A program made the position numbers and the translations under genes. DNA of 64,000 nt from assembly GCA_964610305.1 (NCBI GenBank), contig CAZSVL010000006.1:13973-77972 (forward strand), written 5' to 3'. This document shows, piece after piece, positions 4,721 to 36,856 of this stretch. Numbering within the stretch: the stretch's first letter is position 1; each line of letters begins with the position of its first letter. The notes below the pieces were generated by a model. That model worked only from the letters and a program-made list of their open reading frames with translations. It was not told where the DNA came from and did no database searches. The stretch is from an uncultured Gammaproteobacteria bacterium. GTDB taxonomy: Bacteria; Patescibacteriota; Patescibacteriia; Magasanikbacterales; JBBTXJ01.

Positions 4721-6211
4721 ATGAGTACGTCATTTTGGGAAGATAGCGGTAGAAAGGGAATGGTTGCAAAAGCAGTTGTTTCTCCTGATGGTACGATTAT
4801 TGCACGAAATCATCATAAAAAGGCTCCGCTCCGCGAAGGAGATGTTGGCCTTGAGATTCGTTTGGATCGTAAAAAGGCAGAGGAGATCACGCCAGAGCAG
4901 CGCATGGGCATGCAGAGTATTGCCGGCGCTATGGCAGATCATCTGCTCGTCTATGTAGGAGCACGTAAAGAGGCTCCTATGTGGGAAGAGGGCAATGTTG
5001 TAGAAGTCACGTGTGATGGCACTACTATCCGCGGCGTGGTTCAGAGGGTTTCGCAAACGCATATCCGGGTAGCAACTTTTAGTGAGGAGTATCATCAAGA
5101 TGAGGAAAAAGCACGTATTGTAACGCGCGATTTCCCCTTGGCTCTGTCTGCAGTTTGGCAGGTGGATGTTCCGCTGCCTGAGTGTGATGGTTTGCCTGGC
5201 CTTGCGCTTGCTACTTTTTTGCAGAACGTTGATGAGTCTTTGCTTCCGTATTTGTTTGAGCATCCTCACCTTGTTGAGTACGTGCTCAAGCATATGAATA
5301 GCCAACGGATTCAGCCAGGTTACTATGTGGGAAAGTACCTTGATTACATTAATGCGGATCATTACGTTGATTTAATCTCTGAGGCTTTTGATAATCGGTT
5401 CCTCAGGCTTATTGGCAGAGCTACTACGGATCAACTCTCGCAGATCGCTTTGCTTGACAAGACTGAAAATGCTGCAGTTGCCAAGCCGCGCAACAAGTAT
5501 CGGACTGCTGCGGTTAGAGCGCTTGTGCAGGAAGATAAGAGCATTGAGCGTCGGCCTTTTGGTAAGCCTACTAGCGTTGCATACCATGACGTATGGCGGG
5601 CATTGACGCCTAACAGAAAGCGCTTGCTTTTGGGTTTGTGCACCGCAGATAGCCCCGCGCTTACTCACGCTATTAAGTACGTGTTTGATTCAGAGGTTTT
5701 ACTTCATCTCTTAAGCGAGGATGTTGGTCTAGTGAACTCGCAGGCTGTAAGTGCTGTACGTAGGAATCTTGGTCACCTCATTAGTATCGGACTTTCTGTG
5801 GAGGTTTTCTTTGGGGGTGAAGATTTTAAAAGGGAGATGTATCGTATTTGGGAGGGTCTGTGTAACTCATCAAGGCCGGGTTTTCTGAGGCAGATAACTG
5901 ATCGCAAGCTTCTGGAAACCATCATCTTCGGCCTAGATAGAGGTGATGGAAATGTAGAAACGGTCTGCGCTCGGTGGATGGAGCTTTCAGAGGATATTCC
6001 CAAGCCTCAAGATGAGGGATCCTTCATCTATAGAGATGACAAAGGTAACTGGCATGGGCCATTTCTGAAGTCTGATGACTACGATCATCTTCTCAGAGAG
6101 AAAAAGTTGACCAGCCTGATGCTGTGCGTAACTCCCGATGGCATTATGAGAATTGCTCGATACGCTCTTGAGATGTCTGATGCTGATCTTTCGTCGTGGG
6201 AAAGGGCATAA
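4721..6211 (+). CDS. Hypothetical protein, paralog B (496 aa)
   Basis: Paralog of 3115..4515. Confidence 0.6.
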   Translation: MSTSFWEDSGRKGMVAKAVVSPDGTIIARNHHKKAPLREGDVGLEIRLDRKKAEEITPEQRMGMQSIAGAMADHLLVYVGARKEAPMWEEGNVVEVTCDGTTIRGVVQRVSQTHIRVATFSEEYHQDEEKARIVTRDFPLALSAVWQVDVPLPECDGLPGLALATFLQNVDESLLPYLFEHPHLVEYVLKHMNSQRIQPGYYVGKYLDYINADHYVDLISEAFDNRFLRLIGRATTDQLSQIALLDKTENAAVAKPRNKYRTAAVRALVQEDKSIERRPFGKPTSVAYHDVWRALTPNRKRLLLGLCTADSPALTHAIKYVFDSEVLLHLLSEDVGLVNSQAVSAVRRNLGHLISIGLSVEVFFGGEDFKREMYRIWEGLCNSSRPGFLRQITDRKLLETIIFGLDRGDGNVETVCARWMELSEDIPKPQDEGSFIYRDDKGNWHGPFLKSDDYDHLLREKKLTSLMLCVTPDGIMRIARYALEMSDADLSSWERA

Positions 6212-19636: not shown

Positions 19637-20285
19637 TGTATTGACAGGCAAAAAATGTCATGGGATGGTGGATAGAGAGAAAAAAGGCCTTTTACAATTT
19701 GCTTTCGGCTCGCCATATCCTCTTCTACAAGTAAGAAAATAAACGTGCCTAACCGCACATTAGACTAGCGAAGGCAGGATACTGCCGGGCCGCAAGAAGG
19801 TTGTAAACCGTTCAACACTTAAATTACCTAATTGCTTATTAGCAAATATGAACGTGTTTGTGCCTTCGGACAAAGAGAGTAATGCTCACACAATGCCGCC
19901 TGCGTTTTCCCCTTATCAGAAATCAAAGGTCACACTGGCATAGTGTACTGGTTGCCACGGAGACGCATGGGATTCCGTTGCAAAAGCATGATTGGACGGT
20001 AGGTTGTTGGGAAACCGCAGCTCCGCCACTTGTGTGTTAATCGAGCTTACTGGTTTCTGAGCAGATCTCTCTGAAAAAATAAAAAAAATAACGTGATGAG
20101 CTATGTTTGTGCATAATACTTCCGGCGCATCACCACTACGCATGGGACGTTGGGTAGCTCGCCATGGCTACAGAAGTCACCGCAGACAAAGGACAGACAG
20201 AAGGGTAAGATTGACACTGATGAGCAGAGAGCTAAGACACATGGAACGCGATCCAACGTTAGTATAATGATAAGGGACAAAACGC

Positions 20286-20310
20286 GGCGCAAGCCGGTTT
20301 TTTGTTTTAA
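20286..20310 (+). terminator. Terminator with GCAA tetraloop
   Basis: aaaacgCGGC-GCAA-GCCGgtttttt. Confidence 0.5.
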
Positions 20311-20321
20311 GGAGCTCAGCC

Positions 20322-20350: not shown

Positions 20351-20373
20351 AGTAAGGCAATAAAGGAGGATTC

Positions 20374-23818: not shown

Positions 23819-23828
23819 AAGTGGCCAC

Positions 23829-26438: not shown

Positions 26439-27059
26439 TTGCATATGGGCGTTGATATAAAAACCATTCAAGAGCTGCGCTTGAAAACTGGCGCAGGTAT
26501 TGCAGACTGTAAAGCGGCGCTAGAGGCTTCTGGAGATGATCTTGCGGCGGCTGAAAAGTGGCTCCGAGAGAAGGGTGCTATTAAAGCTGCAAAAAGAGCA
26601 GATAAAGAGACTAATGAAGGTCTTATTGAGGCATATATACACGCTGGCGGAAAAGTTGGTGTGATACTTATGCTTACGTGCGAGACAGATTTTGTGGCGC
26701 GCAACGAGAATTTTAAGGCGCTCGTAAAAGACATTGCCATGCATATTGCCGCTTCTGATCCGCTTTATTTGCGTGCAGAGGATGTCCCTGCAGAAGACAT
26801 AGAAAAAGAAAAAGAAGTATTGCGTGGCCAGCTAGAGCAAGAAGGAAAGCCATCAGATATGATAGAGAAGATTTTAGAAGGCAAGATGGCAAAATGGCAT
26901 GAAGAAGTTTCCCTCTTGAATCAAAAATACGTAAAAAATGAGGATCTCACGATACAAGAGGTGCTCAATGAAGCCGTAGCCTCTATGGGAGAGCGAATAG
27001 AGATAAAACGCTTCACCCGCTTTGCACTGCAAGGCAACAACACAGCTTGCGGGCTGTAG
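26439..27059 (+). CDS. tsf: Elongation factor Ts
   Basis: LRLKTGAGIADCKAAL N-terminal UBA-like motif and TDFVARN motif. Confidence 0.85.
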   Translation: MHMGVDIKTIQELRLKTGAGIADCKAALEASGDDLAAAEKWLREKGAIKAAKRADKETNEGLIEAYIHAGGKVGVILMLTCETDFVARNENFKALVKDIAMHIAASDPLYLRAEDVPAEDIEKEKEVLRGQLEQEGKPSDMIEKILEGKMAKWHEEVSLLNQKYVKNEDLTIQEVLNEAVASMGERIEIKRFTRFALQGNNTACGL

Positions 27060-27063
27060 TAAA

Positions 27064-27090
27064 AAAGCGCCCAAGCGGCGCTTTTTTGAA
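27064..27090 (+). terminator. tsf terminator (bidirectional hairpin)
   Basis: aaaaaagcgcccaagcggcgctttttt. Confidence 0.6.
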
Positions 27091-27092
27091 TT

Positions 27093-27326
27093 AAAAAAAA
27101 GCGTCAGACGGCTGACGCGCAGTGGGTGTTAAAAAGCGGTTCCCCTGACTGGACTGCTTGCGGCCACTTGGTAAACCGCTTGCATCCTAATCCCCGGCTG
27201 GTGTGCGGCGCAGCCTAGACTAGGTGAACTCTCAAGGAGACCTCCAATCATACTCCTCTTGCACAAGAAGCAGTGTCGTACCGGTTTTTCCGCCACCGGA
27301 TCCACGCAAGTGCCACTTTTTACCCA
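27093..27326 (-). ncRNA. Candidate sRNA (~230 nt) with minus-strand TTGACA-N17-TATAGT promoter (27333-27361) and intrinsic terminator (27093-27118)
   Basis: Perfect promoter hexamers and a hairpin gcgtcagccgtctgacgc plus T8. No ORF longer than 18 aa inside. Confidence 0.45.
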
Positions 27327-27367
27327 CACAACACTATAGCACAAAACGCGGAATTTGTCAAGGGGTG

Positions 27368-27376
27368 TGCTATAAT
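27368..27376 (+). promoter_or_regulatory. Extended -10 (TGcTATAAT) of gap; ATG 6 nt downstream (leaderless)
   Basis: TGnTATAAT directly abuts the start codon at 27383. Confidence 0.5.
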
Positions 27377-27382
27377 AAGCGC

Positions 27383-28387
27383 ATGCCAAAAGTGAGGATG
27401 GCAATAAATGGGTTTGGGCGCATTGGGCGTCAGGCTTTTAAGATTGCGCTAGAAAATAAAAAAATAGAGGTGGTTGCAATCAATGATTTAACAGACAATG
27501 AAACACTTGCCCATCTTTTGAAATATGACAGCGTGTACGGGCGGTATGATAAGAAAGTTGCTTTTGATAGAGATCATTTAATTGTTGGAAGTAAAAAGAT
27601 ACCGGTATATGAGCAGCCGCTTCCAAGAAAGTTGCCGTGGAGGCGGCACAAGGTAGATGTGGTGATTGAGTCTACCGGAAGATTTGTAAAAGATGGGGCG
27701 GCTAGAGATCACGTAAGAGCCGGAGCTGCGGCTGTAGTATTGTCGGCACCGGCAAAAGGTCGTGGAAAAATTCCAACCTACCTACGCAGCGTCAATGACA
27801 AAGAGTATGAAGGAGAAAAGCTTATAAGCAACGCTAGCTGCACCACTAATTGCATTGCCCCAGTTATGGCGGTGATGGAAAGCGCTTTTGGAATAGAGAA
27901 ATCCATGATGACCACGGTGCATGGTTACACCGCGGATCAAAAACTTCAAGATGGGCCTCATAGAGATTTAAGAAGATCCAGAGCAGCGGCGCTAAATATA
28001 ATACCTACTACAACCGGAGCGGCAATTGCTACTACAGAAGTTATGCCGCAGCTTGAAGGTAAGTTTGATGGCATTGCTATGAGGGTTCCGGTAGCGGTTG
28101 GGTCGCTGTCAGATTTTTGTATAGTCACCAAGAAAAATGTCACGGAGACTCAAGTAAAAAATGCTTTTAAAAAGGCCGCAAAAAATCCTCTGTACAAGGG
28201 CGTGCTTGAGGTAACAGAAGACGCCATTGTCTCTACCGATATTATCGGCAATCCAGCCAGCTCAATAGTAGATTTAGGTTTCATCCGCGTAGTGGGCGGA
28301 AATTTGGTTAAAATTTTGGCGTGGTATGATAACGAATATGGTTATGCAAACCGCTTAGTAGAAATGGCGGCTCAAGTGGGAAAGTAA
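27383..28387 (+). CDS. gap: Glyceraldehyde-3-phosphate dehydrogenase
   Basis: MPKVRMAINGFGRIGR NAD-binding N-terminus and SNASCTTNC active site. The upstream in-frame extension in the ORF track is rejected. Confidence 0.85.
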   Translation: MPKVRMAINGFGRIGRQAFKIALENKKIEVVAINDLTDNETLAHLLKYDSVYGRYDKKVAFDRDHLIVGSKKIPVYEQPLPRKLPWRRHKVDVVIESTGRFVKDGAARDHVRAGAAAVVLSAPAKGRGKIPTYLRSVNDKEYEGEKLISNASCTTNCIAPVMAVMESAFGIEKSMMTTVHGYTADQKLQDGPHRDLRRSRAAALNIIPTTTGAAIATTEVMPQLEGKFDGIAMRVPVAVGSLSDFCIVTKKNVTETQVKNAFKKAAKNPLYKGVLEVTEDAIVSTDIIGNPASSIVDLGFIRVVGGNLVKILAWYDNEYGYANRLVEMAAQVGK

Positions 28388-28388
28388 T

Positions 28389-29147
28389 ATGAGAAAATTA
28401 TTTTTTGTCGTCGCAGCGGTTGTCGCGATACCGGTAGCTATTGCAGTTACTTTTTTTGTTTACAAATTTATTGCAGGCATGATGGTTGGTGGCAGCGCGG
28501 GCGAAGTTCATGATAGGGTTTATCAGTGTGAGCGTATAGCGGGAGAGCGTGTTGGTTATGTGTATGTTCGCGGTTTTGGAGAAGATGATCCAGATGCGGC
28601 ATATGCTATTGATGAAGCTGCAAAAATGGATTCTCGTTATGTTGGACTCTTGGATTATGATTATGATGAAGCACTTGAGCTTGAGCAGATAACGAATATA
28701 TTTTTAGAGAAATTAGAAGATTTTGTGGGGGCTAAAAGGCCAGATGCTTTGGTGGTGTTTGGATTTAGCGCCGGCGGCACGGTTATATCTAGCGCCGCCC
28801 ACGCTTTAAATTTTGATGGACCGGTGCAGTTGCACACTATGGCCTCTCCTTTGTCTGGCTACCACGTGGCGGAGTTATTTTTAGCAGATAGAGAGGGTTA
28901 TCTAAGAGAGTTGGCCGCCGGAATACAGGCTTACTTGCCTCCAACAGAAAATGTATCAGCTGTTCACCATAAAACGGTTACCGACAAGGTTTTGGTTGAT
29001 TTTTGTGAAAACGCAAAGAAATTTTGCGATCCACTAAAAGTGCAAAATAATAATCTAAAGGGAAGCGCAGATTTTTACTACCCACAGGAGAGTCACAACT
29101 CAATTGTGATGACCGTGGTAGACAAGGTTATGGCTTGTCAAAAATAA
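28389..29147 (+). CDS. Membrane-anchored alpha/beta-hydrolase-like protein
   Basis: N-terminal TM helix. GFSAGG (GxSxG) nucleophile elbow. Confidence 0.4.
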   Translation: MRKLFFVVAAVVAIPVAIAVTFFVYKFIAGMMVGGSAGEVHDRVYQCERIAGERVGYVYVRGFGEDDPDAAYAIDEAAKMDSRYVGLLDYDYDEALELEQITNIFLEKLEDFVGAKRPDALVVFGFSAGGTVISSAAHALNFDGPVQLHTMASPLSGYHVAELFLADREGYLRELAAGIQAYLPPTENVSAVHHKTVTDKVLVDFCENAKKFCDPLKVQNNNLKGSADFYYPQESHNSIVMTVVDKVMACQK

Positions 29148-29370
29148 AAAAACCTTACGAACACGCTCGTAGGGTCTGGGGTAAACTTCTTTGGAGCTCT
29201 CACCCTCCATCTACTGCACCATCCTACTTACCCAACTGGACGGCGCACCACTGCGCTCTACTCGATTGGCCGCCTCCGGAGGCGCCGCTCGGGCATGTAC
29301 GCATCAGATCTCCCGAATTTTTTGTGTTTATTGCTTGAGGCAATAGCGTGTTGCGAAGAGATCTGAGGAT
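29146..29370 (-). ncRNA. Candidate sRNA B (~225 nt). Minus-strand promoter TTGACA-N17-TATTAT (29377-29405), terminator 29146-29175.
   Basis: Consensus promoter. 3' hairpin cctacgagcgtgttcgtaagg plus T7. No convincing ORF. Confidence 0.4.
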
Positions 29371-29423
29371 GAGTAAATAATAGCACACTTTGCATATTTT
29401 GTCAAGGGCTGGGCTAACATAAT

Positions 29424-29655
29424 TAAAAAACCCTCGCGCACGCACACGAAGGTCTGGGGTTTCTGATTGAGGCTATACGCAGTACGCCTCTCCTGCCACG
29501 CTGCGCGCGATACCCATGGGCGCTTTGTGGGATTTGTACATTGAGTTTGCATGCTTCACTGCCTGCAGACAGATCTGCCTCAATGTACAGAGGTTTTCTT
29601 TTTTTCTTTTTTACAGGAGCGGTTGCGAGCCGCTGCGTGTTCCTGCTTTTTGTTT
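29424..29655 (-). ncRNA. Candidate sRNA A (~230 nt). Minus-strand promoter TTGACA-N17-TATAGT (29662-29690), GC-rich hairpin plus T6 terminator (29424-29460).
   Basis: Consensus promoter. Shares a ccccagacc 3' motif and agatct-containing segments with sRNA B. Confidence 0.4.
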
Positions 29656-29733
29656 GTATAGACTATAGCATAATTCTATACATTTGTCAAGAGCAGTGGC
29701 TCAATAATGGCTAAAATAAGCAAAAATTCAGCC

Positions 29734-29762
29734 TTGACAGGCTTTTTTATATTCGCTATTAT
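29734..29762 (+). promoter_or_regulatory. groES promoter TTGACA-N17-TATTAT; the -35 lies inside hairpin agccttgacaggct
   Basis: Consensus hexamers about 35 nt upstream of the groES ATG. No CIRCE element found. Confidence 0.55.
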
Positions 29763-29798
29763 TATGGCGCACTAAAATAATGCATTTTTTATAACATT

Positions 29799-31803
<2,005 letters not shown>

Positions 31804-31925: not shown

Positions 31926-31968
31926 GTCATCCCGGAATTTTGCGAAGCAAAATATCCGGGATCTCAAG
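31926..31968 (+). repeat. Family 1 element
   Basis: gtcatcccggaattttgcgaagcaaaatatccgggatctcaag. Confidence 0.65.
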
Positions 31969-31993
31969 AATAACGTATACAGCAAAGCGTTCT

Positions 31994-32053
31994 CTTGAGA
32001 TCCCGGGTTCCGTCTACGCTAAAGCTACGCCGGACAGGCAAGCCCGGGATGAC
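31994..32053 (-). repeat. Family 1 element, 60-bp variant in reverse orientation (identical to 22105-22164)
   Basis: Exact reverse complement match. Confidence 0.7.
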
Positions 32054-32062
32054 ACGAATCAC

Positions 32063-32137
32063 GTCATCCTGAACCGAAGGTGAAGGATCTCCTGCCGCAA
32101 AGGAACGTATGAGATCCTTCGCTGCGCTCAGGATGAC
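32063..32137 (+). repeat. GTCATCCTGA...TCAGGATGAC inverted-repeat element (sub-family)
   Basis: 10-bp terminal inverted repeats with internal ggatctc/gagatcc palindrome. Confidence 0.6.
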
Positions 32138-32604
32138 AGGAAACCGCAAGGAAATAAAAAAAGCCCACAAAGCGGGCACCGCTTAAGCAGCTTGGGCAAA
32201 GACCTCTTGCATGTGGCTGTAGAACCACCCCACTGCACGTGTCGGTCGTCGTTGAGCATGTCTAGAGCTTGCTCTAGTGCGGCAAGCATCCGATCACTAT
32301 AGAAGCCAAGTACCTCTGGATCAATGAGCTCTCGCAAGGGAGGGCCAACATCATGGTAGAAAGCTCTGCAGCTCATCTTCCACCTTGGATGGAGCTCGCA
32401 GAAAAGGAAGTCAACGACGGATTCGTAGTCTTTCAGCCGCTCTTCGCATCCAACGTACTTGAGCGCTCGCTGGTAATCCAGCTTGCTTTTCAGAAGTACC
32501 TCTACAAGAGGGAACAAAGACTCAGTAGCACCGCCCGTTAGCGAAAGCGCCAAAATCAAGTCTGTTCGCATCCTGGGTGTCATACTTAGTGACATTCGCA
32601 TCAT
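32128..32604 (-). CDS. Hypothetical protein; C-terminus reads through a hairpin into repeat element
   Basis: ORF only. Confidence 0.4.
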   Translation of the reverse strand: MMRMSLSMTPRMRTDLILALSLTGGATESLFPLVEVLLKSKLDYQRALKYVGCEERLKDYESVVDFLFCELHPRWKMSCRAFYHDVGPPLRELIDPEVLGFYSDRMLAALEQALDMLNDDRHVQWGGSTATCKRSLPKLLKRCPLCGLFLFPCGFLSS

Positions 32605-34703: not shown

Positions 34704-34769
34704 TGCCCCTCCTTTGCTATAAAAATAGCACATAAAGACAAATTTGTCAAGATGTGCTATAGTTGCGCC

Positions 34770-36634: not shown

Positions 36635-36642
36635 GACGTTCT

Positions 36643-36670
36643 TGACAAACGTTCGTAAATGCGCTATACT
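36643..36670 (+). promoter_or_regulatory. Promoter TTGACA-N16-TATACT driving a noncoding transcript
   Basis: Consensus hexamers. Confidence 0.55.
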
Positions 36671-36676
36671 GTTAGT

Positions 36677-36760
36677 AACACTAGGATGTTACTCCGTACC
36701 TTACGGATTGCATCACAACTGGGTACCAAAAAAGATCTCCTCTTGGGGAGCTCTTTTTTT
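36677..36760 (+). ncRNA. Candidate small RNA 1 (~85 nt) with two hairpins and short terminator
   Basis: Bounded by the promoter and ctcc tcttgg ggag plus T7. Confidence 0.35.
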
Positions 36761-36776
36761 ATGCTATACTTTTTTT

Positions 36777-36856
36777 GGACCCGAGGGCCCGTGAGGTATA
36801 CAGTAACCCCCTGGTGTTGGTACCCAGGTAAGCGGGTGCAAGTCCCGCCGGGTCCA
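36777..36856 (+). ncRNA. tRNA-like 80-nt element (7-bp acceptor-like stem, T-arm-like GCGGG-TGCAAGT-CCCGC)
   Basis: A second -10 (TGcTATACT, 36762-36770) puts the TSS at G36777. 5' GGACCCG pairs with 3' CGGGUCC before discriminator A. The D and anticodon regions are not canonical. A bidirectional terminator at 36858-36883 follows. Confidence 0.4.

Follow-up and report, generated by a model that had tools for sequence, protein, structure and literature searches.

The stretch of DNA analysed here (64 kb, called the window below and always meaning that whole length) carries the gene order rpsB-tsf-gap-X-groES-groEL, which is common to the window and its relatives. Three short units on the minus strand lie within this array, one between tsf and gap (unit 1) and two back to back upstream of groES (units 2 and 3); they are divergent from gap and groES and convergent with tsf and with a gene for a protein of 252 amino acids (aa). 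Each unit has its own promoter and intrinsic terminator and overlaps no coding gene, as is expected of a stand-alone small RNA (sRNA), and the same is seen in relatives. A leader function is excluded, since the minus strand carries no gene downstream of any of the three. An earlier note on this DNA, made from the letters alone, had called them antisense-adjacent to the gap and groES promoters; this was reworded to divergent, as there is no overlap with any gene or its promoter-proximal transcript. The units and their signals are the following (L081 is the closest relative, described below).

27093-27326, minus strand: unit 1 RNA of ~234 nt, with its 5' and 3' ends predicted to pair in a closing stem (GGGUAAAAAGUGG / CCGCUUUUUAACACCC) and two 5' hairpins and a long arm inside
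27361-27333, minus strand: unit 1 promoter, TTGACA (27361-27356), N17, TGc-TATAGT (-10 hexamer 27338-27333)
27093-27118, minus strand: unit 1 terminator, hairpin GCGUCAG-CCGU-CUGACGC (27118-27101) followed by U8 (27100-27093), kept in L081
29146-29370, minus strand: unit 2 RNA of ~225 nt, a paralogue of unit 3 by profile and shared structure, with fast-evolving 5' two thirds
29405-29377, minus strand: unit 2 promoter, TTGACA-N17-TGc-TATTAT
29146-29181, minus strand: unit 2 3' module, CCCCAGACC (29181-29173), hairpin (29174-29153) and U7 (29152-29146)
29424-29655, minus strand: unit 3 RNA of ~232 nt, with four predicted hairpins, 84% identity to L081 and a consensus energy z of -6.0
29690-29662, minus strand: unit 3 promoter, TTGACA-N17-TGc-TATAGT
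29424-29459, minus strand: unit 3 3' module, CCCCAGACC (29459-29451), 12-bp terminator hairpin (29455-29428) with loop GUGCGUGC, and U6

Searches with GroEL and GAPDH placed the window in Candidatus Magasanikbacteria, a lineage of the candidate phyla radiation (CPR, Patescibacteria). An alternative genetic code was excluded; TGA serves as the stop codon in 11 of 55 long open reading frames (ORFs), and the code is the standard one. Related loci and genomes compared with the window carry L-numbers. L134 is the same strain as the window (99.96% identity), L081 and L082 encode GroEL and GAPDH 95% and 92% identical to those of the window, and the GAPDH of L135 is 91.5% identical. The DNA samples behind this genome or L081 are SRR8146441 (for L134) and ERR2281805. 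A clade at ~80% GroEL identity comprises L083, L086 (the same as L087, L088, and L127), L091, L093, L136, and L137, and the remaining relatives, L090 and L092, stand at 83% and 76%. A scan of genome contigs with GAPDH yielded relatives of 58% identity or less throughout, which were too distant for comparison.

A consensus scan recovered all three textbook promoters described in the earlier note; each agrees with the consensus at 11 of 12 positions, its spacer is 17 nt long, and its -10 is extended by TG. Across the window, TTGACA-N17-TAnnnT was counted 15 times where 0.71 would be expected, a number reached in none of 100 shuffles, and promoters of the TTGACA-N17 type were also found upstream of rpmE, a pilin-like gene and groES. 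For these reasons the type is the genuine housekeeping promoter consensus of the organism and no chance match, and the units confirm that a textbook extended -10 sigma-70 promoter is in use in the Magasanikbacteria lineage. The unit 1 promoter reads TTGACA-N16-TATAGT with TG in L081, and the unit 3 promoter is kept in both L081 and L135. The L081 equivalent of unit 2 has a different promoter, TTGACA-N17-TACCAT, sited further upstream. A GC hairpin with a U-tract ends each of the three units, as had been described; that of unit 2 contains one mismatch, was for this reason unlisted by the terminator tool, and was seen in the minimum-free-energy fold and in a separate scan. Promoters and terminators are the best-conserved parts of units 1 and 2. 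The common 3' motif reported earlier (ccccagacc) was likewise recovered as CCCCAGACC, lying just before the terminators of units 2 and 3, and the AGATCT words that had been read as shared segments were discarded, being not conserved in the closest relative and carrying no signal. The G+C content is 51-55% within the units versus ~43% in the flanking DNA.

Sequence conservation was measured against four-fold synonymous sites, which are 43-50% identical between the window and L081 in gap and groEL, 35% in the 252-aa gene and 78% in groES (n=40). At 43-50% such sites are saturated, so that sequence evolving neutrally would not be expected to align. Between the two genomes, unit 3 retains 84% identity (z = 33 for an alignment of the body only) and unit 1 retains 63% (z = 8.5 for the body only), while the body of unit 2 gave z < 3, with no detectable homology except in the last ~90 nt. 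In the more distant clade, the L086 and L091 units share 92% identity over their 3' 200 nt, versus 72-75% at synonymous sites. Conservation above the neutral level is strong for unit 3 and for the family formed by units 2 and 3, moderate for unit 1, and restricted to the 3' third in unit 2. These comparisons indicate that the units are under purifying selection.

Folds of the single sequences were mildly better than those of shuffles (z of -2.8, -2.35, and -2.0 for units 1, 2, and 3). Compared with column shuffles, the consensus energy reached z = -6.0 in the unit 3 pair, -4.3 in the unit 1 pair, and -6.3 in an alignment of four unit 2/3 sequences. In this four-sequence alignment, 22 of 41 consensus pairs had changed on both sides versus 7.5 ± 3.0 in shuffles (0 of 200 reaching that number), 87.8% of the cells were paired versus 72.5% in shuffles, and slid controls produced 2-8 pairs with changes on both sides. 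Between unit 3 and L081 the compensatory changes fall in hairpins 1 and 2, and the two-sequence consensus of unit 1 comprises 53 pairs, 11 of which changed on both sides. When the minimum-free-energy fold was transferred to the relative, unit 3 retained 59-60% of its pairs versus ~33% in controls.

Units 2 and 3 are, by their sequence profiles, tandem paralogues of one lineage-specific RNA family that lies outside Rfam. The sequence profile of unit 2 matches unit 3 at E values of 5.5e-5 and 5.6e-4, and that of unit 3 matches the unit 2 of L081 at 1.1e-5. Read 5' to 3', the predicted fold of unit 3 runs from hairpin 1, whose 5' side carries GGAACACGC, through an A-rich linker and the long hairpin 2 to hairpin 3, which has CCCAUGGGUA in its loop; hairpin 4, CCCCAGACC, and the terminator follow. 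The order common to the family is GGWACACGC on the 5' side of hairpin 1, the A-rich linker, a long and variable hairpin 2, hairpin 3 with an (A/U)UGGG(U/A) loop, hairpin 4, CCYCAGRCC, and a terminator with the loop GUGCGUGC. The counterpart of GGAACACGC in L086 and L091 is GGUACACGC, the CCYCAG motif reads CCUCAG in L086 versus CCCCAG in units 2 and 3, and the two copies of the GGAACACGC motif in the window are as follows.

29635-29643, minus strand: GGAACACGC motif in unit 3
29346-29352, minus strand: AACACGC of GCAACACGC, the unit 2 copy of the GGAACACGC motif

A covariance model, R1, was built from four unit 2/3 family sequences. It found the L091 unit, which was not in the model, with 37.8 bits and an E value of about 1e-11 over 203 nt, the same motifs following in the same order and 30 of 32 non-gap pairs being canonical; it also recovered the 3' module of L086, and gave no further match in the window or in 20 other loci. 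L091 (5233-5478, minus strand), compared with L086 (5310-5368, minus strand), has ~185 extra nt in the 5' part of its groES-divergent RNA. Since the 3' 200 nt are still 92% identical despite this addition, the family tolerates large 5' insertions. A candidate long-range helix, GGG(U/A)AA : UU(A/U)CCC, joins the hairpin 3 loop to the 3' motif; its length falls from 8 bp in each of the two copies of unit 2 to 5 bp for L091 and 4 bp for unit 3, and it contains one U-A to A-U exchange between clades. The 3' module is not a genome-wide repeat, as a scan of the window allowing up to 3 mismatches matched unit 3 alone. A metagenome scan with the 3' motif pattern returned 40 matches, 39 of them chance occurrences in high-G+C genomes and one real (L127, identical to L086).

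The site of the unit 2/3 family is constant, with the RNA divergent from groES, in the same orientation and equipped with its own TTGACA-N17 promoter and terminator. Two copies of this groES-divergent RNA are present in the window and L081, and one copy each in L086, L091, and L090 (partial, at a contig end). Unit 1 appears to be a separate RNA, younger or faster-evolving and present in the species of the window and its nearest relative only: among the relatives compared it is confined to the window and L081, the tsf-gap spacer is 80-126 nt in L083, L086, and L091, and L135 is without the -35 element of unit 1.

The interpretation that we consider reasonably probable is that each of the three units is an independent gene whose product is a small, structured, non-coding RNA, probably accessory and trans-acting. 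What sequence comparison has established is that the units have promoters and terminators, lack a conserved reading frame, are under purifying selection and keep their secondary structure, and the suggestion of novel sRNAs in the earlier note is borne out by conservation far above the saturated neutral level, significant consensus structures and the lack of a conserved ORF. Strong constitutive promoters, compact hairpin scaffolds, short invariant motifs predicted to be unpaired or in loops, variable copy number and the fact that the units can be lost give them the profile of trans-acting accessory sRNAs. Under this interpretation the products of all three units would be abundant, stable RNAs with an accessory regulatory role in trans, exerted through protein binding or through base pairs formed by the conserved unpaired motifs. 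The hairpins would form a stabilising scaffold, and the possible helix GGG(U/A)AA : UU(A/U)CCC may bring the 3' motif back to the hairpin 3 loop.

Several results weigh against this interpretation. The consensus structures were scored on the same alignments from which they were derived, and the 2-6 sequences available per RNA are below what a rigorous R-scape covariation test requires. In the transfer of minimum-free-energy folds to the relative, the pairs retained by units 1 and 2 were not above controls. The 5' two thirds of unit 2 have drifted past recognition between the two closest genomes, L135 has one unit at the groES site with an unrelated body, and no groES-divergent unit is present at the same syntenic site in L083, L092, L093, L136, and L137. 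Given this drift, the unrelated body and the relatives lacking a unit, part of the unit sequence may be weakly constrained, and the RNAs are dispensable. A target scan by duplex folding against 51 translation-initiation regions in the window yielded unrealistically long duplexes, and a scan of the window for complements of the motifs found no sites enriched near starts and no target site that stood out.

All four alternative explanations considered are less well supported than the sRNA interpretation. Strongly diverged housekeeping RNAs (6S, signal recognition particle (SRP)/4.5S, RNase P, or transfer-messenger RNA (tmRNA)) that the models miss in CPR bacteria would agree with the strong constitutive-type promoters, the length of 225-234 nt, the stand-alone position and the high G+C content of the units, and the housekeeping RNAs of these bacteria are poorly represented in model seeds. 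This explanation, which the earlier note had offered alongside novel sRNAs, is nevertheless very unlikely. The comparison with Rfam that had been proposed (6S, SRP_bact, tmRNA, RNaseP) gave no support: the gathering score was reached by no match in the window, and relaxed thresholds (E <= 10 for 26900-29900, E <= 1 for the window as a whole, and E <= 5 for five related loci) added no relevant match. Models of 6S RNA (RF00013 and related) had no match in the unit region, the window or the five related loci, SRP RNA, RNase P RNA and tmRNA were without a covariance-model match, and ARAGORN at default settings called no tRNA and no tmRNA in the window. Instead of the 6S rod with a central bubble, the folds are four successive hairpins in units 2 and 3 and a closing stem with a multibranch interior in unit 1, and the universal RNase P motif (GAGGAAAGUCC) and the SRP domain IV motifs were absent on inspection of the unit folds. 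Close relatives carry 0, 1, or 2 units at the same site, and the units evolve far faster than housekeeping RNAs. Hardly any probability is assigned to the units encoding small proteins, or a type I toxin with its antisense RNA. The longest ORFs exceed the 10-26 aa given previously: unit 1 has one of 58 aa with a GTG start or 40 aa with an ATG start, and those of units 2 and 3 reach 39 and 36 aa. In favour of coding, the 40-codon ATG ORF of unit 1 starts one base after AGGAG, and an ATG ORF of 26 codons in unit 2 starts 5 nt after GGGAG. None of the unit ORFs is conserved between the window and L081, where indels shift the frames and start codons are lost; the sole frame open in both genomes, in unit 3, differs by 7 replacement versus 2 silent changes in 22 codons, several of the replacements being radical, and Pfam returned nothing meaningful in the units. 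Because of these frameshifts and radical replacements in L081, the units are judged non-coding. The sole hydrophobic ORF (29541-29714, plus strand), antisense to unit 3 and with a weak DUF4257 match (E 0.0024, below the cutoff), is the complement of the A-rich linker, has neither a promoter nor a ribosome-binding site, and is not kept in L081, its differences from that genome being the compensatory changes of hairpin 1; a type I toxin-antitoxin system was rejected on these features.

The two other explanations are still entertained for units 1 and 2. The RNAs could be parts or remnants of selfish or defence modules, such as RNA antitoxins or decoys, in the gap-groES slot. The content of this slot differs between genomes (a RelB/ParE toxin-antitoxin pair for L083, a 424-aa gene for L086, and the 252-aa gene for the clade of the window), and the units vary from 0 to 1 or 2 copies with bodies that are replaced or drifting. 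However, the units have no linked gene for a partner protein, no flanking repeats and no further copies were found in the window, and nothing similar to the units was found in phage, plasmid and viral collections; across clades with GroEL 80% identical the RNAs keep the same position and orientation by groES, and a selfish or defensive origin is unlikely. It is about as doubtful that the function lies in the act of transcription, with divergent promoters that compete with or insulate gap and groES and terminators that block antisense read-through. The promoters involved are close together, and the superior conservation of promoters and terminators in units 1 and 2 would be in keeping with such a function.

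27368-27376, plus strand: putative extended -10 of gap, TGcTATAAT, from a reading of the sequence; kept in L081 and L135
29734-29762, plus strand: groES promoter, TTGACA-N17-TATTAT, divergent from unit 3

The unit 1 -35 element (27356-27361, minus strand) sits 7 bp from the putative extended -10 of gap, and 43 bp separate the unit 3 promoter from that of groES. The unit 1 and gap promoters, being divergent and overlapping, could compete for RNA polymerase. An effect of transcription itself would nevertheless leave unexplained the 84% conservation and the compensatory changes along the entire body of unit 3, the internal motifs common to the L086 and L091 RNAs, and the whole of unit 2, which is far from any promoter that it could influence. 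For gap itself no recognisable -35 was seen, and the gene seems to depend on the extended -10 alone.

As sRNA genes, units 2 and 3 have their nearest analogues in OmrA/OmrB of Escherichia coli and PrrF1/PrrF2 of Pseudomonas. Both of these pairs are adjacent intergenic genes in the same orientation, with their own promoters and intrinsic terminators, conserved ends and diverged centres. Units 2 and 3 share the adjacency, the orientation, the individual promoters and terminators, and the conserved ends with diverged middles, but they differ in having no sequence or Rfam similarity to either pair, in a length of ~230 nt versus 80-150 nt, and in their CPR host. Resemblance to 6S RNA is limited to a length of ~200 nt, a presumably high abundance, a housekeeping promoter and, in unit 1, 5' and 3' ends that form a closing stem; unlike 6S RNA, the units do not form a long rod interrupted by a central bubble, match no 6S model, and are not universal in close relatives. 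In the C-rich-motif sRNAs of Gram-positive bacteria (RsaE/RoxS, and the Rsa RNAs of Staphylococcus aureus), such motifs pair with G-rich ribosome-binding sites (PMC2790875). Units 2 and 3 likewise have a C-rich CCYCAG beside an intrinsic terminator in a hairpin-rich RNA. They differ from the RsaE/RoxS type, which has several unpaired C-rich motifs and an Rfam match, in having one such motif, perhaps sequestered by a long-range helix with the UGGG loop and ambiguous in its pairing status, and no Rfam match.

The units represent a new RNA family of a well-known kind of element, with no surprise in kind. Full-text literature searches yielded no report of small regulatory RNAs in CPR/Patescibacteria, and it is mainly for this reason that the units are of modest value, as a base from which RNA regulation in CPR genomes can be mapped. 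As examples they are clean, being delimited by promoter and terminator and under selection, and R1 gives this CPR-specific RNA family a first covariance model. It would be a long shot to regard the family as a CPR-specific abundant RNA with a global role, or as an RNA-only mobile cassette that takes turns with toxin-antitoxin modules at a genomic hot spot. Were the former true, the RNA could stand in for a regulator lacking in reduced genomes, for example one linked to RNA polymerase or chaperones and tied to the heat-shock locus.

The 252-aa gene (28389-29147, plus strand), between gap and unit 2, encodes an N-terminal hydrophobic segment and a GFSAGG motif and has a weak alpha/beta-hydrolase match (E 0.009, below the cutoff). 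It is fast-evolving, its products being 58-65% identical in amino acids among three genomes that share ~92% identity in GAPDH, and is replaced by other genes in more distant relatives. In the clade at ~80% GroEL identity, a canonical operator of the controlling inverted repeat of chaperone expression (CIRCE) type, TTAGCACTC-N9-GAGTGCTAA, is present upstream of groES at the following positions of the related loci.

L083, ~5545-5575: CIRCE site
L086, ~5515-5545: CIRCE site
L091, 5618-5646: CIRCE site
L093, ~955-980: CIRCE site
L136, ~215-245: CIRCE site
L137: CIRCE site

The operator is degenerate or absent in the window (compare 29763-29798), L081, and L135, which suggests that HrcA control was lost in the subclade of the window. 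Short palindromic elements resembling miniature inverted-repeat transposable elements (of the 'GTCATTGCGAG...' or 'GTCATCC...GGATGAC' type) were found at 30080-30165 and 31930-32140 of the window, in the groES-groEL spacer and downstream of groEL. In relatives they lie within the 5' leader of groES (L083 5570-5660, L086 5555-5650, L090 240-320, and L136 255-340).

Other promoter-driven candidates in the window were inspected for non-coding units. The minus-strand candidate at 34714 proved to be a gene, the minus-strand candidate at 23821 is rpmE, and the plus-strand candidate at 20355 is the pilin-like gene; the remaining non-coding candidates are unrelated small units, among which R1 finds no family member. 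Upstream of the pilin-like gene, which has its own promoter at 20320, a stretch of ~600 nt without a plausible ORF (19641-20300, plus strand) extends from a TTGACA promoter-like site to a terminator, CGGCGCAAGCCG followed by T6; it has no Rfam match and could represent one or two further non-coding RNAs. A promoter-to-terminator unit of ~80 nt (36642-36760, plus strand) has the promoter TTGACA-N17-TATACT, ends with GGGGAGCUC followed by U7, and contains no ORF and no Rfam match. Directly downstream of it, an 80-nt tRNA-like cloverleaf (36777-36856, plus strand) has a 7-bp acceptor stem (GGACCCG/CGGGUCC), a T-arm (GCGGG-UGCAAGU-CCCGC) and a -10 of its own, TGcTATACT, and is closely followed by an intrinsic terminator. 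This element was missed by Rfam and by ARAGORN at default settings and was called as tRNA-Pro(TGG) at 36785-36856 when the ARAGORN threshold was set to 80%; it may be an aberrant tRNA or a tRNA-like RNA.

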